From an uncultured Planctomycetota bacterium (GTDB lineage Bacteria; Planctomycetota; JAJSAM01; JAKLKS01), in assembly GCA_964370855.1 (NCBI GenBank), contig CAYJMF010000001.1, positions 133,167 through 197,166 on the forward strand: a stretch of 64,000 bases of DNA. The letters are read 5' to 3'. Every line of letters starts with the position of its first letter. Positions within the stretch are counted from its first letter, which is position 1. The notes under the pieces are model-generated. The model did not search any database. It worked only from the letters and a program-made list of their open reading frames with translations, and was not told the origin of the DNA. Both the position numbers and the translations under genes were made by a program. Shown one piece after another: positions 2,964-60,425 of the stretch.

Positions 2964-5900
2964 CTACTCCACGCGCACGACCCCGCCCGCCGGCACCTCG
3001 AACTCCCGAACCACCGTCCAGCCCCGCGGGTCGTTCCACGAGGTGGACACCTTCGGAATGCGGCGGACGAGCCGGACGCGACCCGCGGGCATCCGGGGGA
3101 CGGCGAACTTCCCGTCCGCCCCCGCCGTCACGACGGCGGAGGCCCAGCGCCCCCCCTCCCCCTCCCACACGCAGGCGAAGGGCGCCAGCGAGGCGTCGAC
3201 CGTCCCCTCCACCCGGCCGAGGGGGAGCTCCAACATCCACGGGTTCTCCCCGGGCAGGAGTTCCACCGCGTCGAAGACGCGGAGGATCCCCTCGGGACCG
3301 CCAAGCGCCACCCGCCACGGGCCCGGAGCGGCGGCGGGAATCGAAAAGACCCCGTCGGCGCCGAGGGTGGCTGTCGCCGGGATCGCGGCGTAGGTCGCGT
3401 CGGGAATCGCGTCCACGGGGGAGAGGAGCCCCGCCGTCCAGCCCGCCGCGCCGCCGGGACCCTCCACGGACAGCCGCCCGCGGAGGACCGCCACCCCTTC
3501 CCCCGTCAGGTCGAGATCGCGCGTGACGGTGCGCCCCTCCTCCACGGCGCAGTTCCACCGGAACTCGCTCGTGCCGGGCCCGAAGGCCCCGCCGTCCCGC
3601 GCGGGCACGAGGCGGTCGTACTGCTGGAGGATCCAGGGCCCGGGGAGGAGCCCCTCGAAGCGGTAGCGCCCGTCGGCCCCCACGCGGAGGGACCGCGGTC
3701 GGGCGTCCCCGCGGTGGAGGGCCACGATGACCCCGTCGGGGCTCCGCCCCGCCGGCATCCGGACCTCTCCCGTGAGTGTCCCGCCCCGCCCGAGGGGAAT
3801 CTCGATGCCGGACACGCCGCCGGCGGGATCGAAATCGAAGGGCCCCGCCTCCGCCGGCGCGAAGCCGTCGGCCTCGACGCGGACCACGTATCGACCGGCG
3901 TTCTTCAGCGGCAGGGTGAACGCCCCCTCCGGTCCGGAACGCGCCTCGGCCTTGGGGTCGGGGTACCAGCGGAGGGGGAGCCCGTCCACGGTGGCCTTGG
4001 ACCCCGCTCCCACGACGGACAACGCCGCCACGCGGGCCCCGGGCACAGGGCTCTCCCCGTCGAGAACCCGCCCCTCGAGGGCGGCGACGGGATCGAGAAC
4101 GCACTCCACCGCGTCGGGCCCGGTGAGGGGGTCGAAGGGGCCGAGTTCCCGGTCCGCGAAGCCGGGGGCGCTCACCTCGATCTTGAAGGGGAAGCCCGGC
4201 GCCAGGAACTCCGCGGTGCCCTCATGATGCTCCCCCGGCGGGACGCCGAAGAAGGAGTCAAAGCGGACCGCAGCGGGAGTCAGGTGGGCGCGCCACGAGA
4301 TGACGGGCTCCCCGGTCCGGCTCCTGATCGAAAGTGCCACGCGGCGCGGCGCCGGGAACCTCATCTCGACGTCCCGATCCCCGGGATGGAGAGGCCAGGC
4401 GAGGGATGCTCCCCAGCGCCGATAGGGGTCCTTCACGAGCAAAGTGACCGTTCCCTGGTAGGCGGTGGGTATGCGGAACCGGCCGTCGGGCCCCCTATCC
4501 ACCTTCTGCGTGTTCAACCTGCCGGGTGCCTCGATGTGGGCGGAGAAGTCCAACGGATCCTTCAGGACGGTTCCATCGGGTGCCAGGACTCGCCCCTCCA
4601 CCCAGTCCTCGGGCCGCTCCGTTTCGATGCGAAGGTCCGTCCGCGCCTCCGTCCCGGCGCCGACCTCCACGGGATCGCTGCGCCCCGCGCGGTAGCCCGT
4701 ACGCCCCGCCCAGAGGTGCACCGTGCCCGCGGGCACGCCCTCCAGCAGGAACCCTCCCGTCCCGTCCGTGGCAGCGGGAACCCCGTGCGTGAGAATCTCC
4801 CGCCCGAGGAGGCGCCGCTCCTCGACGGGGCCCTTCGCACGTTCCGTCGCCTCCAGCCCGACCCACGCATCGGCAACCGGGGCGCCCTCCCCGTCGAGGA
4901 CCCGGCCGGCGATGGAGCCACCGGGACCGAGGGGGATGTCGCCGAGGGCCAGTTCCCGCTCCGCCACCACCCTGACGGCGAGGGCCCGGGTCTCCCTCCC
5001 GACGGCGGCCACGACCAGGGTGACGCGGTACTCCGTCTCCGGCCGCTTCCGCCATCCGGCCATGGGCGGCAGGGCGACGGCGAGCCGGCAGACGCCGTCC
5101 GGCCCCGTCCGCGCGCTCCCCTCGCCGTCCCCGGGCAGGATCGAGATCCGGGCACCTTCGATCGCCCTCCCCGTCTCCTCCACCACGCGCCCCGTCACCG
5201 TGAAGGGGATGCTCTCCGCCTTGAAGGAGGGTCCGCGCGGCTCGACGGGGGCGATGGCCGGGGGGGCGAGGGCCCCGGTTGAATCCCCGGGAGTCGGCCC
5301 CTTCCCCCCGGTCCCCTCCCCAAGAGCCGGGTCCGCTGTCCTATGGGGCCGGGGGGAATCCCCCGGCCCCCGCCAGAGGAGCCCCGCCGCGATAAGCACG
5401 CCCCCCGCCCCCCCCCCCGCCTTCGCCGCGGTCCCCATGAGAAGCCCTCCTCCCGTCGCCGCCGCCGCGGCCCCTCCCGCGGTTCCGGCCGCGGTCGGTA
5501 CTCCCTGTTCGCGCGCCAGCGGCAGCACGATCGCCATCCACGCTGCGCGATTCCCGCCGTTCTCCGCGTCGAGCCGCTCCCGAAGGAGTTCGAGGGCCCG
5601 CTTCAGCCGCCAGCGCACCGTCCCCTCCGGCGTTCCCTGGCGCCGCGCGATCTCCACGGAGGACATCCCCTCGTGGAAGCGGAGGAGGACCGTCGATCGA
5701 AACGGCTCCTCCAGGCCGGCGACGAGGGCCGCGAGCCGGCGCGCCGTCTCGAGGCGGGACGCCAGCTCCTCCGGCGACGGAAGCGGGGAGCGCTCCGGCC
5801 GGGCGGCGGCCTCCTCCCTCCGCTCCCTCCGGCCCGACTCGCGGAGGTCACGCCTGCGGAAGTTGCGCAGGACCGTGGCGAGCCAGGGGCGGACCGGTCC

Positions 5901-9472: not shown

Positions 9473-9613
9473 TTCGCGGCCTCCCCGTGGACCCGCTTCG
9501 GTGAACAGGCATCATCGTAGTGCCGGGCGGCGCGGAGGCGACGGCGCATCTCCATGGATTCGCGAACTCGCCTCCCCCTTCCCCTCCCCCCGCCCGTGAG
9601 GGACAATCCCACC

Positions 9614-12600
9614 ATGACCGGACGCGGCGCCCTCCTTGGCGGCGGACTGCTCGCCCTCGCGATCCTCGGGGGCGTCGTCCTGTACCTCGACGGGAAGACG
9701 GAACCCCCGGTGCCGGGTCCCGCCGCACCCGGGGCGCCCCACGCCCCCGCTCCGGCCTCGCCCTCCCCCGCCGCACCCCCGCCCGACGCCCCCGCGGCGC
9801 CGCCCCTCGAGGGGGGCCCCGGCGCCGTCGTCGGACGCCTCGTGCGCGGTTCCCCGCCCACCCCCGTCCCCGGCCGCGTGACCGTCGCCGGCCCCGGCGG
9901 CGCCGCGGCCGCCGCTACGGTGGACGCCACCGGCCTCTTCCGCCTCGCCGGCCTCCCCGCCGGGACGCCGCTCGCCTTCGAGGCGACGTCACCGGGCCTC
10001 CTCCCCCACCGCCTCCCCTGGGTGCGCCTCGCCGCGGGGGATCCCCTCGACCTCGGCGACCTCGCGCTCGGCGCCGGCACCGCCGTCGCGGTGGAGGTCG
10101 CCGACGGCCGCGGGCGGCCCATCTCCGGCGCCTCCGTCACCCTGCGACGGTGGCCGGCGGGGGCTTTCCTGGGCTCGGTCCCCTCCGAGTACCCCGAGGA
10201 CTCCGCCGTCCCGCCCTCCCTCCGGGCCTCCACCGGTGCGGAGGGTAGGGTCGTCCTCGAGGGGACCCCGCCGGGCCCGTGGAGGGTCGAGGTCGCCGCC
10301 GCGGGGTTCGCGCCGCGGGAGGAGTCCTTCACCGTCGTGGAGGGGCGGGCCGCCGCGCCCCTCCGCTTCCTCCTCCTCCCGGCCCTGGCCCTCGCCGGGA
10401 GAGTATCAATCTTTGATACACCTGCGGAGGGGGCGGTGGTCGAGGCCGTGGAGCGGAACTTCATGCGCCGGGTCCGCTCGCGGCCCGCGGACGCCGACGG
10501 CGGCTACCTCCTCGAGGGGCTCGACGCCGGGCGGTGGACCCTCTCCGTGTGGCCGACGCCGGACACGGAGGTCTGCGTCGGCGGCCTCGACCTCCCGGGC
10601 CTCGATCGGTTCGACATCCGCCTCCCCGCGGGCGGGCGTGTCCTCGGCACCGTGCTCGACGACGCCACCGGGGCTCCGGTCCCCGGCGCCCTCGTCACCC
10701 TCCGCACCGACGGGGCGGGCTTCCTCGATGACTCCGCGGCGACGCGGACCGACCCCGACGGGCGGTTCTCCCTCGACCACCTCCCACCCGACGTTCCGAA
10801 CATCACCGGGTTCTCCGTCACCGCCACCGGGTTCCTCGACTTCCCCGACGGGCGGTCGGAGCCCGTCGTCCCGGAGGCGGCCCTGTTTCCGGGAACCGCT
10901 GATGGGATCGTGGTCCGCCTCCGCCGCGGCGCCGCGGTGGTCGGGAGGGTGCTGGATCCCGAGGGGCGGCCGGTTCCCGGGGCCCGGGTCTCCCTCTTTT
11001 CATCGATTGGCGGAGGGGAGAGTGGTTTCTCCACCCCCGCCCTTGCCGACGTGGAGGGAAGGTGGCGGCTGGAGCCGGTGGAGCCGGGGACGGGGATCCT
11101 GCTCGTGGCAGCGCCGGGCTTCTGCCAGGAGGAGTTCCCCGCCGATCCTGCCGCGGCGCTGTCCACGGGGACGGCCCCGGCCTCCTGGACCGTGGAGGTG
11201 CCGGCCTCCGGGGAGGCGCGGAAGGACCTCGTCCTCTCCCGCGGGGGCGCCATCGAGGGAACGGTCGTGGACGCCGACGGGGCGCCGATGGCGGGCGCGG
11301 CGATCTCCTGCCACCCGGAGGGGAGATGGGACGAACTCGGGACCGCCGGCCCCTCCGACGGGGAGGGGCGGTTTCGCGTCGCGGGGGTCCCCTCCGGTCG
11401 TGCCCTGGAGGTGTCGGCGTCCCTGCCCGACCGCCCCGACGGCCGGTCCGAGCCCCTCACCCTCGGCCCCGGGGAGACGAAGCGCGATCTCCGGATCGTC
11501 CTTCCCGCACCGGCAGCCCTCGCCGGGATCCTCCGGCGGGAGGACGGCACCCCGCTCCGGGCGCCGCGCCTCAGGATCGTGGACGGGGAGCCCGAGGACG
11601 GTGCCCTCGATCCGATGATCCTGGGGATGGCCGCGTACCGCCCCGTGGCCCCCGACGGGAGTTTCCGCGTCGAGGGCCTGGACGCCGGCACCTGGACGCT
11701 GGCGGCGGAGGACGAGGGGTGCGCCCTCGCCGTCGGCCCCGTGGTGGTCCTCGGCGAGGGGGAGCGGCGGGAGGAACTCGAGGCGATCCTCCCCGCGGGG
11801 ATGTCCATCGCCGGCCGCGTCGTGGACGGGAAGGGGGCGCCGCTTCCCGGGGCGGTCGTTCTCGTCGCGAGGGTGTTCGAGAAGTACTCCACCGCGAGCG
11901 TCCTCTCGGACCTCCACGCGCCGGCGGCCTCGGCGATCACGGGCGAGGACGGCGCCTTCCGGAAGGAGGGGCTCCCTCCCGGGCCCCATTCCGTCACGGT
12001 GCGCGCGGACGGCACGCGGGAGCGTTCGGTGGAGACCCCGGCCGGGACTGCCGACCTCCTCATCGTCATGGAGAGCGGATTCTCCGTCGCGGGGAGGGTC
12101 GTGGACGCCGAGGACGGCCGCCCCGTGGCCGGGGTCCGGGTGACGGCCCGGCCCCGGGGACCCCGCGGTTTCAGCGAGGCGCGGGAGACGGTGAGCGGCG
12201 GGAACGGGGAGTTCCTCCTCGACGGGCTTCCCGAGGGCGGCGTGGACCTCCGGTTCGACCCGGAGTCGGGGGGGAAGGTCGGGGGGTACGGGGCGAAGAC
12301 GGTGCGGGGCGTGGCGGCGGGCACTTCCGGGCTCGAGGTGGCGCTCCCGCGGGGTCTCGCAATCGCGGGGAGGGTCGTGGACGAGGAGGGGAGGGCGATC
12401 GCCTCCGCCCTCGTGATCCACGCCGTCGGGAGGGGCGACGACGGCGAGATCCTGTTCGCCACCGTCACCCGGGAAGGGAGCGTCGACGGGTCCTTCCTCG
12501 TCGGGGGCCTCTTGCCGGGCACGTACTCCCTCACCGTATCGAGTTCTCCCGACTACCTGTCGGCGACCGAGCGCGGCCTGCGGTCAGGGACCGAGGGCGT

Positions 12601-13159
12601 CGTCGTCGTCCTGCGCCGGACGGGCCGGATCTCCGGCCGGGTCGTCGACGGGGACGGACTGCCGGTCGGAAGCGGTGTCCCCGTGGCGGCCGACTTCCGG
12701 GGTGCGGGGAAGGAAGTCGCAGGGGCCCATGGGCGCACGGAGACCGGGGCGGACGGCTCCTTCTCCATCGGGATGCTCGGCCCCTACCGGTTCCGGCTGA
12801 CGGCGGGGGGGGGGAACCGGTGCGACTTCCTTCCCTCGGCGCATCCCGGGGACGTGGCCGTCGGCACCACCGACGTGGAGATCCGCGCTGCCCGTGGCGC
12901 CTCCCTCTCGGGGATGCTCCGCGATGCCGCGGGCGCCGCGGTGAGGGGAGTGGCTGTGCGGGCCCGGACCGGGGAGTTCGTCGAGGCCTGGCTCGTCTCG
13001 GACTGGCAGGAGGTGGACGACGACGGCGCCTTCCACCTCCGCGGACTTCCGCCCGGCACGGTGACCCTGGAGGTCCGGGCCGGGGACGGGGAGACGATCC
13101 CTCTCGGTGAGTGGACCGCCCCGGGGGAGAACCTCCGGGTGGTGATTCCGGAGCGGTAG
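9614..13159 (+). CDS. Membrane-anchored CarboxypepD_reg-like repeat protein (paralog family)
   Basis: ATG 9614 (MTGRGALLGGGLLALAILGGVVLYL = TM helix); an alternative ATG is at 9554. A Pro/Ala linker is followed by more than 10 modules 'GRVVD..G.P..GA.V...TD..G.F.L..L..G.Y'. Confidence 0.8.
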   Translation: MTGRGALLGGGLLALAILGGVVLYLDGKTEPPVPGPAAPGAPHAPAPASPSPAAPPPDAPAAPPLEGGPGAVVGRLVRGSPPTPVPGRVTVAGPGGAAAAATVDATGLFRLAGLPAGTPLAFEATSPGLLPHRLPWVRLAAGDPLDLGDLALGAGTAVAVEVADGRGRPISGASVTLRRWPAGAFLGSVPSEYPEDSAVPPSLRASTGAEGRVVLEGTPPGPWRVEVAAAGFAPREESFTVVEGRAAAPLRFLLLPALALAGRVSIFDTPAEGAVVEAVERNFMRRVRSRPADADGGYLLEGLDAGRWTLSVWPTPDTEVCVGGLDLPGLDRFDIRLPAGGRVLGTVLDDATGAPVPGALVTLRTDGAGFLDDSAATRTDPDGRFSLDHLPPDVPNITGFSVTATGFLDFPDGRSEPVVPEAALFPGTADGIVVRLRRGAAVVGRVLDPEGRPVPGARVSLFSSIGGGESGFSTPALADVEGRWRLEPVEPGTGILLVAAPGFCQEEFPADPAAALSTGTAPASWTVEVPASGEARKDLVLSRGGAIEGTVVDADGAPMAGAAISCHPEGRWDELGTAGPSDGEGRFRVAGVPSGRALEVSASLPDRPDGRSEPLTLGPGETKRDLRIVLPAPAALAGILRREDGTPLRAPRLRIVDGEPEDGALDPMILGMAAYRPVAPDGSFRVEGLDAGTWTLAAEDEGCALAVGPVVVLGEGERREELEAILPAGMSIAGRVVDGKGAPLPGAVVLVARVFEKYSTASVLSDLHAPAASAITGEDGAFRKEGLPPGPHSVTVRADGTRERSVETPAGTADLLIVMESGFSVAGRVVDAEDGRPVAGVRVTARPRGPRGFSEARETVSGGNGEFLLDGLPEGGVDLRFDPESGGKVGGYGAKTVRGVAAGTSGLEVALPRGLAIAGRVVDEEGRAIASALVIHAVGRGDDGEILFATVTREGSVDGSFLVGGLLPGTYSLTVSSSPDYLSATERGLRSGTEGVVVVLRRTGRISGRVVDGDGLPVGSGVPVAADFRGAGKEVAGAHGRTETGADGSFSIGMLGPYRFRLTAGGGNRCDFLPSAHPGDVAVGTTDVEIRAARGASLSGMLRDAAGAAVRGVAVRARTGEFVEAWLVSDWQEVDDDGAFHLRGLPPGTVTLEVRAGDGETIPLGEWTAPGENLRVVIPER
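10403..10419. repeat. GTATC-N7-GATAC palindrome, copy b (inside a CDS)
   Basis: GTATC aatcttt GATAC, encoded as codons gta tca atc ttt gat aca (V284-S-I-F-D-T289 of ORF 9554..13159). It is a conspicuous AT-rich island inside GC-rich coding sequence. Confidence 0.6.
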
Positions 13160-14321: not shown

Positions 14322-17300
14322 ATGCGCGGTCGGGACCTCGTCGCTCCCCTCGTCGCGGCGGCCCTCCTCGCCGGCGGGACGGGACGGGCCGCGGAGGAGG
14401 AAACCTCCCCCGGCCCCGTCGGCGTCGTCCGCGTCGTGGACGAGCACGGCGCCCCCGTCCCCGGCGCGCGGGTCGCCCTCGTCGCCTCCGGTCCCGCTTC
14501 CCCCCTCGGCCCGGTCCCCCTCCCGGGCCCCGTCGGGGAGGGATGGGCGGCCCTCCTCGAGCCGACCTACGGCGCGCGCCGGGTGGAGCTGGATCCTCCC
14601 GTCACGACCGACGCCGGGGGGCGGGCGGTGCTCCGAAGCCCTCCGCCGGATCCGCGGCGCAGCCCGCTCCCCGGATGCCCCGTCTGGGCCTCCGCCCCGG
14701 GCCGCGCGCCGGCCTTCGGCAACCCGGAAGGCGGGGAGACCCTCATCGAGATCGACCGCCCCGCGGACTTCGCCGGGAGGCTCCTCGACGGAAGCGGTGC
14801 CCCCGTCGCCGGCGCCCGCATCCTCGCCCCGTACCGGTACGCGTGGGACGAGGGGCCGCCCGCGGCCCTCGTGCCGCTCTCCGCGACCACCGACGCCGAG
14901 GGGCGGTTCCGGATCGCCGGCATGCAGCGCGGAGAGGTGGACCTCCGGGCGATCCTCCCCTCGGGCGTCGCCTTCGAGATGCTGCGGGGCGAGGCGCCCG
15001 CGCCCGAGGGGTGGGAGCTCCGCCTCGGGGGGACGGGAGCGCTCCGCCTCCGCTTCGTGGACGACGCCACGGGGGAGCCCCTCGCCGGCGTCCGGTTCGG
15101 GCTCCACGTGGACCACCCCGGCGGGTTCGGGCTCTCCCTCGCCAGCGCCGTCGGCGCCTCGGCGGAGGACGGCACGGCCGTCGTCTCCCCCCTCCCCCCG
15201 GGGATGGTGTCGTGGGTCGGTGCGGAGCGGGAGGGGTACCGGCCTCCGGAGGGGCTCCAGGAGGCGAGCGGGGCCGTGGGCGCGGAGATCCTCGCCGGGA
15301 GGGAGGCCTCCCTCGTGCTCCGGTTGAAGCCGGGCACCCCCCTCCGCGGCCGCGTCATCGCCGGGGACGGCGGTCCCGTCCCCGGGGCCCTCGTCGAAGT
15401 CGCGCGGTGGCCCCGGGTGCGGGCCGGGCGGGGGGACGAGGGGGAATCCTGGTTCATGACCCTCACCGGGGCGGACGGGGCCTACCTCTTCCCGGGCCTG
15501 CCCGAGGGGACCTTCGCGCTCTCCGTCACGGCCCCGGGATTCCATCAAGCCGGCGCAGCGTCCGCGCCCTCCCGGGAGGAGGCGCCTCCCGGCGCCGTCG
15601 TGGAGATCCGGGGGCGCGCGCCGATGACGCTGGATCTCGCGGTCCTCCGCCTCGGATCCGTCGAGGGGATCGTGGTGGACGCGGCGGGACGTCCCGTGGC
15701 CGACGCGGCGGTGAGGATCCAGGGCGGCCCCGCCGCAGACGGGGATTCCCCCTTCGCCCGCTCCGATGCGGCCGGAGCTTTCCGCATCGAGGGCGTGCCT
15801 CCCGCCCCCGCGTGGACCGCGACCGCGGTCCGGCGGACCGGGGCCACGCGCCCCGTCCCGCGCTCCGCCCCCTTCGAGGTGAAGGAGGGGGAGACGGCCT
15901 CCGGCATCCGGGTCGTCCTCCCCGCGGGCTCCACCCTCGCCGGCGTGCTCCGGCGGGCGGACGGAGGGCACGTCGGAGGGCTCCGCCTTTTCCTCGCCTC
16001 GGGCATCCAGGCCGGGGGCGGCGGTCCCCCCTCCGCCGGGGCGGGCCGCGTGCGCGGGGCCGGAGTGGGCCGGGAGGATGCCCCGAAGCCGGATCCGATC
16101 TTCCCCCGTCCCTGGGAGGGCCTCGGCCTCCCCGGACCGTTCCCCGTGGCCGCCGACGGGAACTTCCGCATCGAGGGCCTCGGCGCCTCCACCTTCACCC
16201 TCGTCGTGGACACCGGCAGCCCCTGGTGGATCCGGGGACCGGCCGTCGCGCTGAAGGAGGGGGAGGGGAGGGAGGACCTCGCCATCGAACTCCCTCCGCT
16301 CCGCGAGGTCTCCCTCCGCGTCACCGACGCCGCGGGGGCGCCGCTTCCGGGGGCGCAGGTCGCCCTGTTCCGGGGCGTGAAGCGGGAGTGGAACACGGCG
16401 GAGGCCCATCTCAGGTCCGACGGAGAGGGTCTATGCCGCCAGGGAGGGCTTCCTCCCGGGACCTACTCCGTCGAGGCGACCTCCCCCGGGTTCCTCCCGG
16501 CCGGCAGGGTCCTCGCGGAATCCGCGGAGGAGGCGACCCTCGTCCTCGCCCGCGGGCGATCCGTCGATGGCATCGTCGTCGATGCCGGGACCGGCGCCCC
16601 CCTCGTCGGCATCCAGGTCGTCCTCCGGCTCCCCGACGGGGTCCCCCGGCCCGCGGGCGGCGATCGCACGGAGACGGGGCCCGACGGGCGCTTCGCCTTC
16701 CGCGGCCTCGGCGAGGGCGGCTTCGATCTCCTCTTCGAGGAGTGGGCGGGGGGCCACGCGGCGCGGCTCCTTCGGGAGGTCGCGCCGGGCACGGCGGACC
16801 TCCGGGTGGAGCTCGCGGCGGGGCTCTCCATCGGCGGCGAGATCCTCGGCCCCGACGGGAAGCCGTTCCACGGGGAGCCTCCCCCCGTCGCCTTCGCCCT
16901 CCCCGTCGGGGAGGGAGCGGAGGCACGCGAGGGCGCGGAGCGCCAGGCGGAGTGGAAGGGGGGCTTCGCGATCCCCGGCCTCGCCCCGGGGGAGTACGAG
17001 GTGGGCTTCCGCCCCGCGGTGCAGGGCGACTTCTGGTGCCCGGAGCGGGTCCGGGTCGCGGCGGGGGCGGGCGGGGTCGTCCTCCGTGCGGCGCTCCTCC
17101 CGCGCATCGGGGGACGGGTCGCCGGCCCCGGCGGGCGTGGAGTCTCCCCGGGGCCGAGGGGCGCGCTCGAGGTCGTCCCCTCCGACGGATCCCGGGAGCC
17201 GACGGAGGTCATGTTCCCGAGCCACTTCACGGCGACGGTGCGGGAGGACGGGAGTTTCGAGACCTCGACCCTGGATCCCGGGAGGCGGTACGACCTGCGC

Positions 17301-25067: not shown

Positions 25068-25075
25068 GCCCCGCC

Positions 25076-41321: not shown

Positions 41322-41326
41322 GGTCC

Positions 41327-46088: not shown

Positions 46089-46295
46089 GCGCTCCCACGT
46101 GCCCGGGCGGGCGAGGGCAAGGACGGACGCGACTCCCGCTGACAGTCCTTCGCCACCATCCCCACCGCCCCCCCGGAGACCTGGATGCCGAGTTCACCGT
46201 CGAAGGCCCGACGGGTACCATGGCCGGGCCATGAAGAAGGGAGTGCCGGTCGGGAACGCGATCCTCGTCGCCGCGGTGCAGGCAAAGGCGGAGTG

Positions 46296-48281
46296 ATGAC
46301 GACCCCGCTCGGAGGTGCGGGAGGGCGGGGGCATCCGGGCGGAGCCACCGGGCGAAGGACCCGGCGGGACCTGGCCATGGCCATCGCGGTGGCCGTGGTG
46401 GCGGCCGTCGCGTGGGTGCTCCTCCGCACTCCGGAGATGGAGGAGCACGTGGTGCCCCCGGCGCCGCCGCCGGCCCCGCTCCCCGCGCCGGCGCCGGGGA
46501 CGCCGGCCGTCGCGCCCCCTCCACCCGCCACGCCAACGAAGGCCGGCCCGCCCGCGCCGCCGCCCGCCGCCGCGGCGGATGCCCCCCCCGCGGACCCGCG
46601 ACCCCTCCTCCGCGGCCGCGCGGTGATCCGCGCCCCCGACGGGAGCGAGAAGCCGGCGCCCGGCGCGCGGTTCGTCCTCCACGAACTGCCCATGGAGATC
46701 GAAGTGGCAACCGGGACGTACTGGAACACCCATCGATTCATCGTCTGCGACGGAGACGGGCGTTTCGAGGCGCCGGTCCCTCCCGACGACGAGGTGGTCC
46801 TCCTGCCGGACCCCGGGGACGCGGCCTTCGCGTTCCCCGCGGGGCTCGGGAAGCTGCGGTTCGCCACCGACGCCGCCTCCCTCGCCGACGAGGTCCGCGT
46901 GCAACTCTCCCCGCGGGGCCGCGCCTCGGGCATCGTCCTCGACCCCGCGGGAGAGCCCGTCGCCGGCGCGTCGATCTCCTTCGCCGCGAAAATCACGCAG
47001 GAGGGCCCCCTCTACACCGCCCCGGAACTGGGCTCCTCCCGGACCCTGTCCGGCCCCGACGGGCGTTTCACCCTGGAGGGGCTCCCGGTCGGGAGGACCC
47101 TGGCGGCGGTCGCGGCGAAGGCGCCCTTCCGGAAGAGCCTCTCCTCCCCGTTCCAGGTTCCCGAGGGCGGAACCGTCGAGGGCATCGAGATCCGCCTCCT
47201 CCCGGGCTGCGCCATCACCGGCCTCGTGACGGACCCGGCGGGCGCTCCCCTTCCCGGCGCGCAGGTGCGCGTGACGACGGGGAACACGACGCGATGGGCG
47301 GGACCCAACGTCCCCGCCGATCTCCCCGACGAGGCCGTCGCGGGGCCCGACGGGCGGTACCGGATCGAGGGGCTCGAGCAGCGGGCGTACAGCGTCTTCG
47401 CCACCCTGGAGGGTCACACTCCCGCCGACCTGGGCGGGATCCACGCCACCGCCGCGGGGACCGAGGCGGGCCCCCTCGTGCTCGTGCGGGGAGGGGTCCT
47501 CCGCGGGATCGTCGTGGACGCGGAGGGGCAACCGCTCACCGGCGCCTCCATCACCCTCCAGGGCGAGAACCGCAGCGGCGGCACGGCCACGACGGGCGCC
47601 GACGGGAGATTCGAGATCCGTCCCGTGGTCCCCGGCTCCCACACGCTCTACGCGGGAAAGGTCGGATTCGTCCAGCGCCCGCCGGAGAGCCTCGAACTGG
47701 CCGGAGGGGAGGAGATCCGGATCGTCCTCGAGCGGGGGTACGAGATCACGGGCACCGTGCTCGACTTCGACGGCAAGCCCGTCCCGCAGGCACGGGTCCA
47801 GGTCCACCCCTGGCCCACCAGGGGCGCGGAAGTCCTCGGAGTCGCCATGACCGACCCCCGCGGGAGGTTCTCCGTCGGAGGCCTCCCCGCCGGGAGCCAC
47901 GGGATCGCGGTGACCGCGGTGGGCCACGTCTTTCCCGACTTCCCCCCGGTCCCCGCGGGGACCACGACCGTGGAACTCCGCACCGCACGGTCGGTCTTCA
48001 TCGCCGGCCGGGTCCTGAAGCCGGAGGGGGAGCCCTTCCCCGACGCATGGGTGGAGGTCGCCGACGGCGGAGGGGTCGAGCCCCCGGACCACGTCGACCT
48101 CCGCCGGTTCCGGCGCGTGCTGACGGATGGGGAGGGCTGCTTCCGGGCCGAGGGGCTCCTCGGCGGCCCCTTCCACCTCCTCGTCCGGGCCCGGGACGAC
48201 CTGCAGGAGGAGTCCCTCCGCGACGTCCCCGGGGACAGCGACGGCCTCGTCCTGCGGATGCGGCGGCGGGAGGGGCGCTGA
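46296..48281 (+). CDS. Membrane-anchored CarboxypepD_reg-like repeat protein (short paralog)
   Basis: ATG 46296 has AAGGCGGAG upstream; an alternative ATG is at 46377. TM 'MAIAVAVVAAVAWVLL', Pro/Ala linker, then about 6 modules ('GIVLDPAGEPVAGASI', 'GLVTDPAGAPLPGAQV', 'GIVVDAEGQPLTGASI', 'GTVLDFDGKPVPQARV'). Confidence 0.8.
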   Translation: MTTPLGGAGGRGHPGGATGRRTRRDLAMAIAVAVVAAVAWVLLRTPEMEEHVVPPAPPPAPLPAPAPGTPAVAPPPPATPTKAGPPAPPPAAAADAPPADPRPLLRGRAVIRAPDGSEKPAPGARFVLHELPMEIEVATGTYWNTHRFIVCDGDGRFEAPVPPDDEVVLLPDPGDAAFAFPAGLGKLRFATDAASLADEVRVQLSPRGRASGIVLDPAGEPVAGASISFAAKITQEGPLYTAPELGSSRTLSGPDGRFTLEGLPVGRTLAAVAAKAPFRKSLSSPFQVPEGGTVEGIEIRLLPGCAITGLVTDPAGAPLPGAQVRVTTGNTTRWAGPNVPADLPDEAVAGPDGRYRIEGLEQRAYSVFATLEGHTPADLGGIHATAAGTEAGPLVLVRGGVLRGIVVDAEGQPLTGASITLQGENRSGGTATTGADGRFEIRPVVPGSHTLYAGKVGFVQRPPESLELAGGEEIRIVLERGYEITGTVLDFDGKPVPQARVQVHPWPTRGAEVLGVAMTDPRGRFSVGGLPAGSHGIAVTAVGHVFPDFPPVPAGTTTVELRTARSVFIAGRVLKPEGEPFPDAWVEVADGGGVEPPDHVDLRRFRRVLTDGEGCFRAEGLLGGPFHLLVRARDDLQEESLRDVPGDSDGLVLRMRRREGR

Positions 48282-48334: not shown

Positions 48335-51300
48335 CTACTCCCCTCCCGCCGGGATCCTCAGGTCCGCCGACGGCGCCTCGAACTCCCCGAGCGGGAAGGT
48401 CTCCCCGAAGCGGGTCTCGGCGGTCAGGACGATGCGGCCCGGGACGAGGCCCACCAGGGTGAAGACCCCGTCGTCCCCCGCCGCGGTGAACTCCCGGAGG
48501 CCGGGCAGGCCCGGTTGTGCGGCGACGACGTAGAACACCTCCCGGGCCTTCCGGGCGCCGTCCACGAGGAGGACGCGGAGACGGGCCCCGGGCCGGGTCC
48601 GCACCTCCAGCCCCGCCGTTCCCGGGGCGACGGGCCCGGAGGCCACGGGCGCGAAATCCGGGACCTCCTCCGAGGCGTAGGTCCCCCCCGCGTAGACCCG
48701 GAACCGGTAGGGGCCGAGATCCTCGAACTGGAACTCCCCGCTCTCGTCGGTGCGTTCCCATCCGAAGGCCCCCGGCGCGTCCGCGGCCACCCCCTCCGCC
48801 AGGGCGCGCACGGGGACGCCCGCGCCGACGGGCAGGCCGTCGGGGTCGAGGACGCGGCCGGAGATCCGGCCCGCCCTCTCCAGTTCGATCACGACGTCCA
48901 CGCTCCCCGCGGGAACGGCGGCCACGCGGGCCTCGAGGAACCCGTCGCAGAAGCGCGTCACGAGGTCGTAGTCCGTCCCGGGAAGGAGGGGCCCGGCCTC
49001 GAACCGGCCGTCGTGGATGGAATCGGCGTCCCCCCCCATGTCGCGCAGCGAGGTCCCCGGCGGACCGTAGTGGACCCACCCGGACTCGACGGGGTTCCCC
49101 TCCCCGTCCACCACCGTGCCGGAGATGAAGACGCCCCGGTGCAACCGGAGCACCACCCCGGCGGTCCCCGCCGGGACTCCGTCCAGTGCCGCGGGCACGA
49201 GGTCCATGGGCCGCCGGGAGGACCAGGCCGAGAGGCGGTACTTCCCCTTCGGGAGTCCCTCGAAGGAGAAGGAGCCGTCCTTCCCCGCCTCCCCGTCACG
49301 GCAGAGGGGCGAGATCAGGTCGCCGAAGGGGTTCACCATGTCGACCCGCACGTGGACGGGCTCCGCGAGGGCCCCCCCCTCCCCGTCCAGCACCCGGCCG
49401 GAGATGGAGAGCCCCGGGGAGAGTTCCACACGGAGCCCGCGCGCACCCACGGCGAGGTCCTGGATCTCGACGGGGACGAGTCCACGGGTCCCGGGGTCGA
49501 GGCCGTCCTCCCTCCCCGCGAGGAGATCGCAGGTCCGCGTGCCGTCGAGACCGTCGAGGAGGAAGGTCCCGTCGGCGCGGCTCTCCCCCCGCACCTCGTG
49601 GACGGGGCCCAGGTAGCCGGTCTGCTGGCGGGCCGCCAGGGGGATCCCCGGCAGCGGCGCCCCGGAGCCGGCGGCGACGACGAGGCCCGCGAGGGTGCCC
49701 GTGCGGTGGAGGACGATCACCGACTCCCCGCCGCCGCTCTCGCCGAGGGCGGCGCCCGGGTACCGGCCATCGAGGTCGGCGAGGACGTCGTACTCGCCCT
49801 TCCAGAGCCCTCCCACGGTGAACCGCCCGTCGGGGCCGGAGACCGCGAGCACGGCCCCCTCCCCGACAATGCGGTCCATGTGAAGCCACTCCGGCATGTG
49901 TCTGGACACCCGGATGGCCGCCCCGGGCAGGGGGCGGCCCTCTTCATCGACGACCCGGCCGCGGAGTTCCGTCGCAGGGACGAGGAGCACCTCGATCCCC
50001 TCCACGACCTGTCCCGCGGCGACCTCGCATCGGGGAGGGTCCTCGGGGAGGAACCCGTCCGCCGTCACCCACAGGAGGTAGTTCCCCGGGCGCACTCCCT
50101 CCAGGCGGAAGGTGCCGTCCTCCTCCGCGGCGGCCACCCGGTCCCCCGGTTCCGCCGGCCGGGAGAGACCGGGGTAGAACCCCGCACCGAGGAGGACCTC
50201 GGCCGATGGGGGGAGCGGCCCCCCTTCCACGCGGATCCGGCCGGCCACCGTGGCGCCGGGGAGGGCGGTCACGACCACGTGCACGGGGCGGTCGCCCTCG
50301 GGCACGGGGAAGGGCTCCGAGATGCCCGATTCCCCGGCGCTCCCGAAGACCCTCACCCGGACCCCGCTCCCGGGGAGGACGCCCTCGATGCGGAACCTCC
50401 CGTCGGCATCGGAGGGGTCGCGCGAGGAGATCCAGCCGGAATCCCCCTCACGCTCCTGGAGCACGGCGTCGATTCCCGGCAGGGGTCGGCCCTTCCCGTC
50501 CATGACCGTCCCCTCGATCACGGCCCCCCTCCGGAGGACGAAATCCCGCTCCGCCTCCTCCCCCGCCGCGACCTCGACGTGCGCGCGGCCGCTGTCGAGG
50601 AACGACCTCCCGCGCACGTGGAGACCGCAGGGCCCCGGCCGGACCCCGGAGAGCAGGAACCGGCCGTCGGGTCCGGATTCCGTGCGCACGTTGAACTCCC
50701 ATCCCTCGTCGGATTCGGGGTACGCCACCACGTCCGCCCCCTCGACGGGAGTCCCGTCCGCTGATCGGACGGATCCCCGGATCCGCCCGCCCCGCGCGAG
50801 GGCGACCTCGACGACGGTCTCGCGGTCCGGCAGGAGTTCCGGGCAGGGCGCGTCCCGCTCCATCACGGCCGGGACGGCGCCCTCCTTCTTCGCCTCCCAT
50901 CGGCCGAGCCGCCCCGCGGGGAGGCCCCGGAAGACCACGATGCCTCCCGCATCCGTCGGGGCCAGGGCATCCGCGGACCACGGGGAGTCGCCCGGTCCAC
51001 CCACGCCGGCGTACACCCAGACCCCCGCGACGGGGCTCCCGTCGGCCCCGTCGCGGACGAGGAACCGGAGCGAGCAGCCCGCGGGGAGGACGAGGTCGAA
51101 CCGCTCCACGGAGGGGAGGGTCAGGGTCCGGGCCGACAGCGCGACCCGGCCCTCGAGGACGACGGAGAGCGTGGCGGTGCCGGGGGGGAGGGCGGCCAGG
51201 CGGTAGCGGCCCTCCCCGTCCGTCGCCGTCCCGTGGATGCCCTCCGCCCATCCCTTCGCCACCACCCGCGCGCCGACGACCGGTTCCCCCGAGGAGGTCA

Positions 51301-51856
51301 GGACCCGCCCCTCGAGGGAGCAGGCCGGACCGAGGCGGAGTTCCACGGACCGTCGGCACCCCTCGGGCCGCAGGTAGACCTGCTCCTCCGCCGTGCACCG
51401 GCCTTCGACCGCGGCCCGCACGCGGAGGAAGCCGGCCGGGAGCCCCCCGAGGACCCCCCTTCCCCCGGCGTCCGTCGCGAGGCGGCCCACGGAGGGCCCG
51501 GGGTCGGGGGCGAGGGAGGAGATCCGGATCACCGCCGGGGGAAGCGAATCCTCGGGATCCCGGAGGAAGAGGACTTCGGCCCCCGGGAGGGGCCGGCCCA
51601 TGCCGTCGACGACCCGGACGGAGACGATGCGATCCTCCTTCACGGGCTCCCCGGCCCCGGGCGGCGGGACCGCGGCCGGGGGACGCGGCGGTGCGGGAAG
51701 CGGGGCCGCCGGGGAAGGACCCGCCGGCGCCTTCCCCCCTCCGCCGGGGGCGGGACCGACCCGGGGCGCCCCGGGCAGGAGGAGGAGCCCCAGGGCGAGG
51801 GCCGCCACCGCCGCCATCGCGGCCACGACCTTCACCGCCCGCCGCCGGGATCCCAT
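48335..51856 (-). CDS. Membrane-anchored CarboxypepD_reg-like repeat protein (paralog family)
   Basis: ATG 51856 with GGAGG 5 nt upstream. TM 'VKVVAAMAAVAALALGLLLL', Pro-rich linker, repeats. It ends '..LGEFEAPSADLRIPAGGE'. It is convergent with 46296..48281. Confidence 0.85.
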   Translation of the reverse strand: MGSRRRAVKVVAAMAAVAALALGLLLLPGAPRVGPAPGGGGKAPAGPSPAAPLPAPPRPPAAVPPPGAGEPVKEDRIVSVRVVDGMGRPLPGAEVLFLRDPEDSLPPAVIRISSLAPDPGPSVGRLATDAGGRGVLGGLPAGFLRVRAAVEGRCTAEEQVYLRPEGCRRSVELRLGPACSLEGRVLTSSGEPVVGARVVAKGWAEGIHGTATDGEGRYRLAALPPGTATLSVVLEGRVALSARTLTLPSVERFDLVLPAGCSLRFLVRDGADGSPVAGVWVYAGVGGPGDSPWSADALAPTDAGGIVVFRGLPAGRLGRWEAKKEGAVPAVMERDAPCPELLPDRETVVEVALARGGRIRGSVRSADGTPVEGADVVAYPESDEGWEFNVRTESGPDGRFLLSGVRPGPCGLHVRGRSFLDSGRAHVEVAAGEEAERDFVLRRGAVIEGTVMDGKGRPLPGIDAVLQEREGDSGWISSRDPSDADGRFRIEGVLPGSGVRVRVFGSAGESGISEPFPVPEGDRPVHVVVTALPGATVAGRIRVEGGPLPPSAEVLLGAGFYPGLSRPAEPGDRVAAAEEDGTFRLEGVRPGNYLLWVTADGFLPEDPPRCEVAAGQVVEGIEVLLVPATELRGRVVDEEGRPLPGAAIRVSRHMPEWLHMDRIVGEGAVLAVSGPDGRFTVGGLWKGEYDVLADLDGRYPGAALGESGGGESVIVLHRTGTLAGLVVAAGSGAPLPGIPLAARQQTGYLGPVHEVRGESRADGTFLLDGLDGTRTCDLLAGREDGLDPGTRGLVPVEIQDLAVGARGLRVELSPGLSISGRVLDGEGGALAEPVHVRVDMVNPFGDLISPLCRDGEAGKDGSFSFEGLPKGKYRLSAWSSRRPMDLVPAALDGVPAGTAGVVLRLHRGVFISGTVVDGEGNPVESGWVHYGPPGTSLRDMGGDADSIHDGRFEAGPLLPGTDYDLVTRFCDGFLEARVAAVPAGSVDVVIELERAGRISGRVLDPDGLPVGAGVPVRALAEGVAADAPGAFGWERTDESGEFQFEDLGPYRFRVYAGGTYASEEVPDFAPVASGPVAPGTAGLEVRTRPGARLRVLLVDGARKAREVFYVVAAQPGLPGLREFTAAGDDGVFTLVGLVPGRIVLTAETRFGETFPLGEFEAPSADLRIPAGGE

Positions 51857-55651: not shown

Positions 55652-55654
55652 GGG

Positions 55655-58040: not shown

Positions 58041-60425
58041 ATGCGCAGGAACACCTTCCTCTTCGGACTGGCGATGCTCGGCGTCGGCGTGGCCGTGGGG
58101 GGGGTCTTCGCCTCCCTCCTCGGGGGGAGGGATCCGGCCTCCACCTCCGGGACCTCCGCCCCGGCGCCCGCCGCGGGGGCCGCCGCGGGGGCCGGCGGCG
58201 AAGGCGTCGCTCCCCTCCCCGCTCCGTCGCCGGGCGCCGCCCCGGCCCGCCCCGCCGCGGGCGCCCCCGGCCCCCGATCCCCCGTCGCGCCCGCAGGCGA
58301 GGGGAACGGCACCCTTTCCGGCGCCGTCCTCGGGCCCGGAGGGGCGCCCCTCTCCGGGGTCCTCGTCCGCGCGACGCCCATGGAATTCGGAGGTGAGGAG
58401 GAATCGGAGGAGGACGCGGCCCCCCTCCCGCCGCCGGGGAGCCCCCCGCCGCCCCGCGACGTGGACGCGGTGGTGCGCGCCTTCGCGCGGGGCCTGGAGC
58501 GGGAGCTGGCCGGGTTGCGCGAGACCGTGACCGACGCGGGCGGCGCCTACCTCCTCTCCGGGCTCCCCGCGAAGACCTACCAGCTCGAGGCCTGGCTCAC
58601 GGGGTACGAGATCGCGCGCACGGGGGGGGACCCGTGGGAGCCCGTCCCCGTCGGGACCACCTGCGATTTCCTCGGGGTCCCCCTCTTCCGGATCACGGCC
58701 GCCGTGACGCTCCCCGACGGGACCGCCCCGGCCCACGCGCGGATCTCCTGGACTCCCGAGGGGGACGGCGAGGAGGGCAGCGCCGAGTGGCGGCCGTCGG
58801 CCCCGACCCTCGACGTGAAGCCCGGGACCTACGAGTTCACCGCCTCCGCCGCCGGCCCCGGGGAGCGGCTCCCGTTCACGGGCGGCTGGATCCGATCGGG
58901 CCGCCGCTTCGTTCCCGCCGAAGACGACGCCCTCTACCGGAGCCCGCCGCAGACCGCCTCCGTCGGAGCCGAGGGCTCCCCTCCCCTCTCCTTCCGCCTC
59001 GAGGGCCAGCCCGGGATCCTCGTGAAGGTGGTCTTCGCCGGCGCCGAGCGCCCCCGCTCGCTCCGCATCGCCGCGCTCCGCCTCGAGGGGGCCGCCAGCG
59101 GCGACCCCTCCCAGCTCCTCGACGACGCCGCCGTGAAGGCGGTGTGGATCGACGACGCCTCCGAGGGCTCCCTCGTGGGCCTCGACCCGGGGACCTGGCT
59201 CGTGGGCGTGACCTTCCGCGGGGGCCGCGTCGGCCCCACGGCCACGGTCGTGGTCGGGAGCGGCCTCGTGACGAAGGAGCTCCTGGTCCCCGACGGCGAC
59301 CTCAGGGACTGGATCCGGGTCTGGGTCCGCGGCCCCGACGGGAGCCCGGTGCGCGACGTCTCCCTCGAGTGCGGCTGCCGCAGCGGCGAGGGGAACGGCA
59401 GCGCCGACCTGAACACCGTTCCCGAGGCCGACGGCTCCTTCCGGGTCGAGCATTTCGAGCAGGACTCCCCGAGCCGCGGCAACGGCTGGAGCTTCGGGGG
59501 GAACTCCCTCGGCGCCGAGGGGCGCACCTATTTCGTCAAGGCCACGAGCGCGAAATACGGGAGCGCGGAGGCGACCTACGACCCGGCGACGGACCGGGAG
59601 ACGACGATCCAGTTCGTCGCGCCGGCCCTCCTCCGCGTGACGGTGCCGGGACTCGGCGCGGGCGCCGACCGGAGCCGCGCCTCCCTCTCCCTGGAGGCGG
59701 TCGGGGAGGAGGGCGGGGGCCGCGGCAGGAACCGCGGCGGGAACCTCGACGGGGAGATCGACGCCTCGGGCGTGGCGACCTTCCCCCCGGCGACCCCGGG
59801 GGCCTACGAGGTGGTCCTGCGCCTGGCGCCGACGGGCGGCCGGGAGGCCATGAGGTTCGGGCGCTGGAACTCCACGGAGGTGGCCCGGGTCCCCGTGACC
59901 CTCGGCGCCGGGGAGACGACGATCTCCGTCCCCCTGCCCTCCCTCTCCAATCTCACCGTGACCTTCGAGGGGGAGGCGCCGGAACTCCAGCGGGTCTCCG
60001 CCGACGGGGCGGGCCGCTCCGGCAGGGCGGTCCGCGGGGCGGAGAAGGAGGGGGAGATCACCTTCCACGACATCGCGGCGGGACGCTACCGGCTGGTGGA
60101 CGACCGGCGCGGAGAGATGCTCGTGGACGTGCCGACGGCCGGCACCGTCGCCTTCCGCCCCCGGCCCTACGACGCCTTCCACATCGAGATCATCGGCAAG
60201 GGGTACCTCGCCGAGCTCGGGCTCCGGACCGGGGACCTCGTGATCTCCATCGACGGGGCGGAGTTCAGGGACCGCGCCACCCTGGACGCGGCGATGGCGG
60301 TGTCGAAGACCCGCGAGACCTCGAAGTTCACCATCCTGCGGGACGGCGCCACCTTCGACGTCACCGCCGACGGCAAGCGGTTCGAGGAGGACAAGGGCAG
60401 CTACTACAGGCCCTGGACGAGGTAG
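58041..60425 (+). CDS. Membrane-anchored beta-sandwich-repeat protein with C-terminal PDZ domain (divergent paralog)
   Basis: ATG 58041 is in frame in ORF 57315..60425. TM 'FLFGLAMLGVGVAVGGVFASLL', Pro/Ala linker, 'GAVLGPGGAPLSGVLVRA' module and further beta-rich region. The C-terminus 'IIGKGYLAELGLRTGDLVISIDGAEFRDRATLDAAMAV..FTILRDG' is PDZ-like. Confidence 0.8.
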   Translation: MRRNTFLFGLAMLGVGVAVGGVFASLLGGRDPASTSGTSAPAPAAGAAAGAGGEGVAPLPAPSPGAAPARPAAGAPGPRSPVAPAGEGNGTLSGAVLGPGGAPLSGVLVRATPMEFGGEEESEEDAAPLPPPGSPPPPRDVDAVVRAFARGLERELAGLRETVTDAGGAYLLSGLPAKTYQLEAWLTGYEIARTGGDPWEPVPVGTTCDFLGVPLFRITAAVTLPDGTAPAHARISWTPEGDGEEGSAEWRPSAPTLDVKPGTYEFTASAAGPGERLPFTGGWIRSGRRFVPAEDDALYRSPPQTASVGAEGSPPLSFRLEGQPGILVKVVFAGAERPRSLRIAALRLEGAASGDPSQLLDDAAVKAVWIDDASEGSLVGLDPGTWLVGVTFRGGRVGPTATVVVGSGLVTKELLVPDGDLRDWIRVWVRGPDGSPVRDVSLECGCRSGEGNGSADLNTVPEADGSFRVEHFEQDSPSRGNGWSFGGNSLGAEGRTYFVKATSAKYGSAEATYDPATDRETTIQFVAPALLRVTVPGLGAGADRSRASLSLEAVGEEGGGRGRNRGGNLDGEIDASGVATFPPATPGAYEVVLRLAPTGGREAMRFGRWNSTEVARVPVTLGAGETTISVPLPSLSNLTVTFEGEAPELQRVSADGAGRSGRAVRGAEKEGEITFHDIAAGRYRLVDDRRGEMLVDVPTAGTVAFRPRPYDAFHIEIIGKGYLAELGLRTGDLVISIDGAEFRDRATLDAAMAVSKTRETSKFTILRDGATFDVTADGKRFEEDKGSYYRPWTR

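Follow-up and report, generated by a model that had tools for sequence, protein, structure and literature searches.

A planctomycetal cluster of long beta-sandwich-repeat membrane proteins, some of them fused to ECF sigma factors

In a 64,000-nt stretch of DNA from an uncultured Planctomycetota bacterium (contig CAYJMF010000001.1, positions 133,167 to 197,166; the whole stretch is hereafter called the window), two members of a family of very long membrane-anchored repeat proteins, G1 and G6, were found to carry an extracytoplasmic function (ECF) sigma factor at the N-terminus, as does a third, G0, encoded to the left of the window. ECF sigma factors are a main bacterial signalling system and are very numerous in Planctomycetes. 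We propose that these proteins are membrane-tethered ECF sigma factors with rod-like sensor ectodomains, occurring beside sigma-less copies of the same scaffold, a statement to which, taken whole, we give about an even chance. Its anatomical part, i.e., the repeat family, the sigma fusion, the transmembrane (TM) tether, and the lack of an anti-sigma domain, is held with high confidence.

A preliminary description of the window had reported ten paralogous genes, G1 to G10, filling about half of it. All ten are intact ATG-to-stop open reading frames (ORFs) totalling 32,124 nt (50% of the window), and their G+C content at third and second codon positions (GC3 0.89-0.96, GC2 0.55-0.59) in such a high-GC genome indicates that the frames are real coding sequence. 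However, only nine of them are paralogs, as G10 has no BLAST match to G1-G9; without it the family covers 29,739 nt, or 46% of the window. We read these nine as a lineage-specific cluster of paralogous single-pass membrane proteins. The genes, and the parts of G1 and G6 discussed below, are as follows.

2964..6056 (-): G1, sigma-fused, 1030 aa; ECF sigma type B, TM, Pro-rich linker, 7 modules (Sigma70_r2 46.4 bits, Sigma70_r4_2 30.9 bits, PF13620 E = 1.6e-36)
5562..6056 (-): sigma2-sigma4 coding part of G1 (aa 1-165; Pfam stretches aa 14-76 and 106-158)
5373..5444 (-): TM-coding segment of G1, holding a G11-C-G6 run with probable G over-calls; sibling assemblies read AKAGVGAAVLLIAAGLLW
9614..13159 (+): G2, sigma-less, 1181 aa; signal anchor (TM aa 7-25, positive N-flank), Pro/Ala linker, 12 modules (PF13620 E = 2.7e-100)
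14322..17957 (+): G3, sigma-less, 1211 aa; signal-peptide-like N-terminus, 12 modules (PF13620 E = 5.4e-67)
18117..21938 (-): G4, sigma-less, 1273 aa; signal anchor, Pro/Ala linker, 13 modules (PF13620 E = 3.4e-91)
22092..24626 (+): G5, divergent, sigma-less, 844 aa; signal-peptide-like N-terminus, 8 modules, PEGA-like end (PF13620 E = 4.7e-57, PEGA 26.7 bits)
32202..36101 (-): G6, sigma-fused, 1299 aa; ECF sigma type A, TM, Pro/Ala linker, 11 modules (Sigma70_r2 39.7 bits, Sigma70_r4_2 33.2 bits, PF13620 E = 2.5e-81)
35547..36101 (-): sigma2-sigma4 coding part of G6 (aa 1-185), with both domains in the structure model
35343..35411 (-): TM helix of G6 (aa 231-253; hydropathy and modelled helix) with a GG.LM.KK motif before it; motif and TM kept in relatives
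36164..39862 (-): G7, sigma-less, 1232 aa; signal anchor, 13 modules; directly upstream of G6 (PF13620 E = 8.2e-90)
46296..48281 (+): G8, short, sigma-less, 661 aa; Arg-rich N-terminus, signal anchor, long Pro/Ala linker, 6 modules (PF13620 E = 1.1e-55)
48335..51856 (-): G9, sigma-less, 1173 aa; signal anchor, 12 modules (PF13620 E = 1e-81)
58041..60425 (+): G10, not a paralog; membrane anchor, Pro/Ala linker, 1-2 diverged modules, C-terminal PDZ (PF13620 34.1 bits, PDZ_2 26.4 bits)

Sigma domains, membrane anchors and repeat modules

The N-terminal 165-185 residues or so of G1 and G6 contain Sigma70_r2 and Sigma70_r4_2 above the Pfam gathering scores, and G6 also passes the NCBIfam model TIGR02937 (sigma70-ECF; 63 vs 42.9 bits). 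G1, G6, and G0 begin with a complete ECF (group 4) sigma factor, consisting of sigma2 and sigma4 without sigma1 or sigma3. Of the common plan put forward in the preliminary description, the arrays of 6-13 modules stand for G1-G9, but the short N-terminus does not hold for G1 and G6, in which sigma2 and sigma4 come first; some 50 residues then lead to the only TM helix, after which come a Pro/Ala linker and the module array. In an AlphaFold2 (AF2) model of G6 aa 1-300, run on an alignment of 62 homologs, sigma2 (aa 12-98) and sigma4 (aa 114-181) are predicted with local confidence (pLDDT) above 95. The spacer between sigma4 and the TM segment consists of an 11-residue low-confidence helix (aa 197-207) and a disordered Gly/Ala stretch, and a TM helix at aa 231-253 is followed by a disordered Pro/Ala linker.

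No anti-sigma domain was detected between sigma4 and the TM segment of G1 or G6, either as a Pfam match or, for G6, as a helical bundle in the AF2 model, and no anti-sigma gene lies beside G1, G6, or their relatives P0002 and P0049. When the window was searched with the sigma domains by tblastn, sigma-coding sequence was found only in G1 and G6; there was no stand-alone ECF sigma gene, and no sigma remnants were seen upstream of the sigma-less paralogs. The N-terminal hydrophobic segments have positive N-flanks and acidic or Pro-rich C-flanks, which fits an N-in, C-out topology.

The arrays themselves belong to the Pfam family CarboxypepD_reg (PF13620), which G1-G9 match with E = 1.6e-36 to 2.7e-100 (124.9-329.3 bits against a gathering cut-off of 32.3) and with 4-11 separately significant stretches per protein. 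A hidden Markov model iterated on the window sequences gave the module counts listed above (94 in total for G1-G9), a mean repeat period of 94.6 aa, and the unit consensus GRVVD..G.PV.GA.V...TDADGRF.LEGLPPG.Y.L, with which the module signature noted earlier agrees. Weaker Pfam matches to Big_1, SpaA, Dioxygenase_C, NOMO_3rd, and EMC7_beta-sandw overlap the PF13620 beta-sandwich stretches. The AF2 evidence on the fold covers two of the 94 modules, namely modules 8-9 of G2 (aa 729-913), which were modelled as two all-beta domains with about 7-8 strands per module (pLDDT 87.4, predicted template modelling score 0.75). Foldseek placed this segment closest to streptococcal and lactobacillar pilins, BaTIE (6fwv), and SdrD-B (E = 3.5e-10 to 1e-7 for the pilins and MSCRAMM), with further matches to a human BOS-complex chain (9c7u_B), the SlaB stalk, and a teneurin transthyretin domain. 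The two modules also superpose on the C-terminal transthyretin-like domain of carboxypeptidase N with an rmsd of 1.8 A over 93 columns. The profile search and the modelled segment show the G1-G9 modules as beta-sandwiches of the transthyretin/CnaB (CarboxypepD_reg) type, the class that had been proposed for them.

Every protein closes with a complete ordinary module, and the related last strand that had been singled out as a C-terminal feature is just the final strand of that module. As had been reported, no catalytic domain was found among the Pfam matches in the ectodomains of the ten proteins. The repeat proteins also lack plug and barrel domains, and the proteins examined have no C-terminal sorting signal of the LPXTG-like, PEP-CTERM-like, or terminal aromatic kind. 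In an alignment of six paralogs, most of the invariant columns are occupied by Gly, Pro, Asp, Phe, Leu, or Val, and none by Lys.

Conservation and history of the two parts

The combination of sigma domain, TM segment, and array is not confined to this bacterium. Among the 120 best homologs of G6, 86 bear an N-terminal sigma domain of the G6 type and a few more one of the G1/G0 type, and in 85 of the 86 a strongly hydrophobic 19-mer lies 40-55 aa after sigma4. Two motifs are conserved in the relatives, RGL..VR..VL after sigma4 and GG.LM.KK before the TM segment. An exhaustive search with G6 aa 1-260 retrieved 495 representative 50%-identity clusters at E <= 1e-30. Within the best 150 of these 495, 149 were long enough to be checked for the TM segment and 143 of them had a TM-like stretch where it was expected, and 103 of the 108 proteins of at least 800 aa contained at least three modules, so that sigma type A is stably linked to this type of array. 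The sigma-TM-array layout defines a large, coherent conserved clade of at least 495 clusters at 50% identity, and its conservation argues against an unselected accidental fusion. A genome scan with patterns from G6 and P0002, which fall in sigma2, mainly recovered generic ECF sigma genes (74 of 80 loci).

The orthologue P0002 is 52% identical to G6 over the full length, with 57% in the sigma part, 54% around the TM segment, 45% in the linker, and 52% in the 11 modules, and the ectodomain alignment contains only 6 gap columns in 1,002 positions. By this comparison, the ectodomain is about as conserved as the sigma part.

Among the paralogs of the window, mutual protein identity is 27-35% (BLAST). 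G2, G3, G4, G6, G7, and G9 are colinear over about 1,100 aa, and the G6 ectodomain is 32% identical to G2 over 1076 aa. The best DNA match between paralogs is 69% over 236 nt, and Tandem Repeats Finder detected no DNA tandem repeats in the family genes. These values argue against a collapsed or duplicated assembly and bear out the old family expansion proposed earlier; the near-identity at the nucleotide level that had been named as evidence to the contrary was not seen. For 94 of 96 modules the best match lay in a different paralog, mostly at an equal ordinal position (e.g., module 1 of G2 with module 1 of G4, module 11 of G2 with module 11 of G9, and module n of G6 with module n+1 of G2), which indicates that a multi-module gene was duplicated whole, long ago. 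The module comparison shows that the array predates the gene duplications, each module having diverged independently since, and no sign of gene conversion was found in the comparison of all modules.

The sigma domains and the ectodomains may differ in their history. There are two sigma lineages, type A in G6 and type B in G1 and G0. In BLAST rankings the ectodomain of G6 (type A) is nearest to those of mostly type-B proteins, whereas the ectodomain of G0 (type B) is nearest to those of type-A proteins. The best relative of the sigma-less G4 is a sigma-fused protein, P0003 (34.6% identity over 1257 aa), with 454 bits as compared to at most 338 bits for the local paralogs. A distinctive first module with the motif LLGRLVRG.PP is common to P0003, G2, G4, and P0047. 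The match between G4 and P0003 and the mismatches between sigma and ectodomain types suggest that a conserved TM-linker-array scaffold has acquired, lost, or exchanged sigma domains, which fits the capture model of Pinto and da Fonseca for Planctomycetes (PMC7671368). In a neighbour-joining distance tree of the ectodomains, G9 groups with P0075 of another genome (100% bootstrap), but the deep nodes have no resolution. The only sigma-less/sigma-fused pairing with strong support, P0092 and P0010, was dropped, as the two are only 30% identical and not colinear.

A second ectodomain type also occurs with and without a sigma domain. The gene at 7328-9472 (-) encodes a secreted 714-aa protein with a weak prenyltransferase/squalene-cyclase-like repeat, and residues 25-325 of this protein are homologous to the ectodomain of a type-A sigma fusion, P0069 (28% identity, E = 9e-21).

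Extent of the cluster and neighbouring genes

The window has a GC content of 72-78% almost throughout (about 75%), and long spurious ORFs are therefore abundant. Proteins identical to those of the window were found on 195-241 kb metagenome contigs of one European Nucleotide Archive assembly series and in an NCBI record, and the named homologs come mostly from metagenome-assembled genomes of Planctomycetota, which by itself makes that phylum probable. The family continues beyond both edges of the window. To the left, about 3-10 kb out (L087 1-6765), lies G0, a type-B sigma fusion of 868 aa with six modules, directly downstream of a gene for a KaiC-like ATPase, two KaiB genes, two histidine kinase genes, and one response regulator gene, all on the same strand. 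To the right, about 7-10 kb out (L088 304-4015), a sigma-less CarboxypepD_reg protein of 688 aa with seven modules adjoins a sigma-54-dependent activator gene. The window and its flanks thus contain at least 11 family genes in about 85 kb. Family genes stand side by side in other genomes as well (L004, L006, L007, and L008); apart from such adjacent pairs, gene neighbourhoods are not conserved among the compared loci. The convergent and divergent pairs mentioned in the preliminary description were recovered for G3/G4 and G8/G9 (convergent) and G4/G5 (divergent), but G7 and G6 run in the same direction, with 62 nt between them.

G10 appears to have only the anchor-plus-Pro/Ala-linker plan in common with G1-G9. 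Its PF13620 match is borderline (34.1 bits vs the 32.3 cut-off), a beta-rich middle of about 500 aa has no family match, and comparisons with solved structures and NCBIfam gave matches at the PDZ level only. No protease domain was detected in G10.

Several other features lie among the family genes. A 605-aa ORF at 30242-32059 (-) has a strong coding signal and no Pfam or NCBIfam match; as it lies on the same strand as G6, 142 nt downstream, it may be co-transcribed with G6. It is absent beside the G6 orthologue P0002. Three toxin-antitoxin-type modules are scattered through the window, i.e., a Phd/YefM antitoxin (2577-2897 (+)), a DUF433/HTH_66 and PIN_10 pair (6153-7290 (+)), and an AbiEii nucleotidyltransferase with a DUF6088 partner (54680-56287 (-)). 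Between G7 and G8, at 40001-46100, the GC content falls to 0.66-0.69 as compared to about 0.75 elsewhere. This stretch, which may be an acquired islet, encodes a DUF3800 protein, a HEAT/DUF2225 protein, a TIGR04255-family protein, an HTH_31 protein, and two ORFs without matches. An AhpC/TSA-redoxin domain is seemingly split over 27443-28369 (+) and 28430-28672 (+), with its N-terminal 35 residues ending a 308-aa ORF and the remainder in an 80-aa ORF, which could reflect a frameshift, a pseudogene, or a sequencing error. The long minus-strand ORF at 1264-2493 (-) was rejected as an over-call, as the gene calls of sibling contigs place a GNAT acetyltransferase of 195 aa (-) and a DUF1697 protein of 185 aa (+; window 1919-2476) there instead. 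Searches of the window for tRNA genes, Rfam families, and DNA tandem repeats gave nothing relevant.

Proposed mechanism, alternatives and significance

The function of the family had been left open. For G1 and G6, the presence of a transcriptional output domain favours a sensor over a lattice or an adhesin, and the ectodomain subfamilies of the sigma-less copies also occur in sigma-fused proteins from other genomes. We propose that the sigma-fused members act as one-polypeptide transmembrane signal transducers. With an N-in, C-out topology, the rod-like ectodomain would sense something in the periplasm or envelope, and the membrane tether, not an anti-sigma domain, would keep the sigma factor from RNA polymerase until regulated intramembrane proteolysis of the ectodomain and TM segment frees it. 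Release by proteolysis is a tentative proposal drawn from analogy, and we put it at somewhat less than an even chance. There is a precedent in Tuwongella, whose ECF sigma factors turned up in detergent-soluble fractions (PMC8567305). As to the seven sigma-less copies, only a few residues would lie in the cytoplasm, or else the N-terminus would be a cleavable signal peptide. These paralogs are most likely periplasmic structural or binding rods, and they may partner with or modulate the sigma-fused ones. Given that four domains of BaTIE measure 19 nm (PMC8327139), 6-13 modules would by analogy span roughly 28-62 nm if extended, which is comparable to or larger than an ordinary periplasm.

Several observations weigh against this proposal. 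As seven of the nine members have no output domain, sensing cannot be the function of the whole family. The only peptidase gene near family genes encodes an M48 protein without conserved linkage, and no site-2 protease (M50/RseP) gene is present in the window. A search upstream of the ten genes recovered neither a shared ECF-type promoter nor a GGAAC/CGT-type motif, which leaves a regulatory link between the sigma-fused and the sigma-less paralogs unsupported. An exact 15-mer, CGAAC[T/C]CGCCTCCCC, does occur upstream of G2 (9563-9577 (+)) and G7 (39937-39951 (-)), the G7 copy being spaced GAAC-N16-CGTT, but it was rejected as a shared promoter since it is not enriched in the window (6 matches vs 3.8 expected). 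Signal anchors were told from cleavable signal peptides by hydropathy alone, the rod lengths presume a fully extended chain, and for the sigma-fused members we infer cleavage, release, a regulon, and a ligand from sequence. Finally, planctomycetal sigma extensions can arise by fortuitous insertion according to Pinto and da Fonseca (PMC7671368), which allows for fusions without a sensing role.

This last point leads to the possibility that the whole family is purely structural or adhesive, serving as a spacer of the envelope, a lattice at the surface or in the periplasm, or an adhesin, and that the fusions are accidents in which a duplicated sigma2-sigma4 cassette came to lie before a membrane-protein gene. 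The many members without an output domain, the mismatched sigma and ectodomain types of G6, G0, and their relatives, and the proposed fortuitous capture of extensions in Planctomycetes all speak for it, as do the nearest solved folds, which come from proteins that build shafts or stalks (among them pilins, the SlaB stalk, BaTIE, and the BOS-complex chain), and the example of NOMO1, whose row of Ig-like folds, held by one TM anchor, sets membrane spacing in the endoplasmic reticulum (PMC8327139). However, an unselected fusion should not last across hundreds of 50%-identity clusters. The sigma-TM-array layout persists in 103 of the 108 long proteins in the set of 150 nearest sigma relatives. Together with the conserved juxtamembrane motifs and the nearly equal conservation of sigma part and ectodomain between orthologues, this makes a purely structural or adhesive family rather unlikely in our view. 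It is also conceivable that the sigma-fused proteins act while tethered, as ToxR and CadC do, with RNA polymerase recruited at the membrane under the control of the state of the ectodomain (e.g., its oligomerisation) and without proteolysis. The lack of an anti-sigma domain and of a protease gene linked to the family genes would agree with this, and the largely disordered spacer of ~50 residues between sigma4 and the TM segment could provide the reach. Yet holoenzyme formation and promoter clearance seem hard to square with a permanent tether, and no membrane-tethered sigma factor is known to us to work without being released. Since the characterised fusion IutY moreover requires cleavage by RseP (PMC8999054), we regard permanent tethering as quite improbable.

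The fusions would be artefacts if a frameshift, a mis-assembly, or read-through had joined a separate sigma gene to the repeat gene that follows it. This had to be considered because sibling assemblies call G1 as two genes, a 263-344 aa piece with the sigma domain and TM segment and a 744-824 aa repeat ORF, and because a G11-C-G6 run lies at the G1 junction. Poly-G and poly-C junk also occurs across the assemblies of this population, in the form of G-saturated duplicates, an N10 gap, and clustered changes to G. In the case of G1, however, the junk sits in the split version. The split contig has about 180 extra nt, a degraded, G-saturated copy of the TM-coding segment (L086 4577-4960) of the kind typical of poly-G read artefacts, and phase variation or a pseudogene was ruled out on this account. 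The 1030-aa ORF is identical in the window and an NCBI record. Clean sibling copies of the TM segment read AKAGVGAAVLLIAAGLLW, a better TM helix than the window version, so the weak G1 TM segment of the window probably contains G over-calls that preserve the frame. G6 has no poly-G tract at its sigma-array junction and is matched over its full length by the orthologue at 52% identity, and the layout recurs in hundreds of independent metagenomic clusters; an artefactual origin is thus scarcely worth entertaining. The same junk led us to reject a 1290-aa version of G7 (L001 ~9450-9650, with an N10 gap and poly-G/C junk). It also makes a within-population pN/pS for G6 uninformative, as the copy on L089 (variant P0001) differs in 14 codons within 27 (1101-1127), mostly by changes to G, on a 5x contig. 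Some source annotations imply yet another reading, in which the repeats are part of an enzyme or transporter system (a peptidase, a dioxygenase, or a TonB-dependent receptor). Sub-threshold Pfam overlaps with Dioxygenase_C and similar families, and names such as 'protocatechuate 3,4-dioxygenase beta subunit' given by JGI to some homologs, point in this direction. But the enzyme-type matches coincide with PF13620 stretches, the sole separately significant one being short (G5 aa 35-70), catalytic, plug, and barrel domains are all absent, and an ordinary module ends every protein, so that we attach next to no weight to it.

Our proposal of a tethered sensor has its closest experimentally studied parallel in IutY of Pseudomonas putida (ECF243), a sigma/anti-sigma hybrid from which proteolysis by Prc and RseP releases the sigma factor (PMC8999054). 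Like IutY, G1 and G6 are single polypeptides that start with an ECF sigma factor, cross the membrane once, and end in a periplasmic part, with no separate anti-sigma gene. In contrast to IutY, in which the extension is an anti-sigma factor of the FecR type that works with a TonB-dependent receptor, they have no recognisable anti-sigma domain or receptor partner, and a beta-sandwich rod of 7-11 modules replaces the FecR periplasmic domain. The actinobacterial groups ECF48, ECF52, and ECF53 (e.g., SCO4117 of Streptomyces coelicolor), whose extensions are predicted to be activated by proteolysis (PMC8999054), likewise have a sigma factor, a TM segment, a Pro-rich extracytoplasmic region, and a binding-type ectodomain. 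However, their extensions include a zinc-finger (ZAS-like) anti-sigma element and one or two TM helices and do not exceed about 400 residues, whereas G1 and G6 have no ZAS, one TM helix, and about 800-1,100 residues of repeats, and belong to another phylum. Without a FecR-type or ZAS anti-sigma domain, G1 and G6 are not classed as members of ECF243 or ECF48/52/53, although they may still work alike.

ECF sigma factors with C-terminal extensions form 19 groups in the classification of Casas-Pastor et al. (PMC7826278), and Planctomycetes have many such factors. The proteins described here resemble the planctomycetal ECFs with long C-terminal extensions (Pinto and da Fonseca 2020, PMC7671368; ECF57; the WD40-type of Gemmataceae) in having a large non-sigma extension, sigma-less homologs, and many copies per genome. 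They differ from the WD40-type extensions in carrying a CarboxypepD_reg array, and this array is stably tied to one sigma clade, unlike the heterogeneous, recently duplicated clusters of Pinto and da Fonseca. Like NOMO1 and the Bacillus anthracis TIE protein, they have beta-sandwich modules in a row, held by a single anchor in the membrane or wall, and no enzyme domain. NOMO1, however, is a eukaryotic type I protein with a C-terminal TM segment and BaTIE is sortase-anchored, whereas the proteins of the window are N-terminally anchored and have no LPXTG; a NOMO1-like spacer role in this bacterium would be pure analogy. Gram-positive pilins and MSCRAMM B-repeats (SpaA, GBS52, and SdrD; CnaB-type) are the closest solved folds and also form tandem rod-like arrays, but the present proteins have no sortase signal and no conserved Lys for isopeptide bonds, are only 13-19% identical to them, and come from a presumably diderm host.

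A more speculative extension of the proposal, which we consider a long shot, concerns the graded lengths of the rods. With 6-13 modules and roughly 30-60 nm, they might determine or sense the width of the planctomycetal periplasm, which is unusually large and invaginated, or its mechanical state, and the sigma-fused members would be mechanosensors or rulers in which distal strain or lost contact leads to proteolysis and passage of the sigma factor to RNA polymerase. If true, this would be a one-protein sensor of envelope geometry, and the spacer principle of NOMO1 would have arisen independently in bacteria.

In the literature consulted, we found no description of a sigma-TM-CarboxypepD_reg array and no experimentally characterised planctomycetal sigma-extension fusion. 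The present analysis corrects misleading source annotations such as the dioxygenase name cited above. More broadly, the family offers a testable model for the regulation of sigma factors by tethering alone, for the gain and loss of output domains on a conserved sensor scaffold, and for the role of long repeat rods in the planctomycetal envelope.

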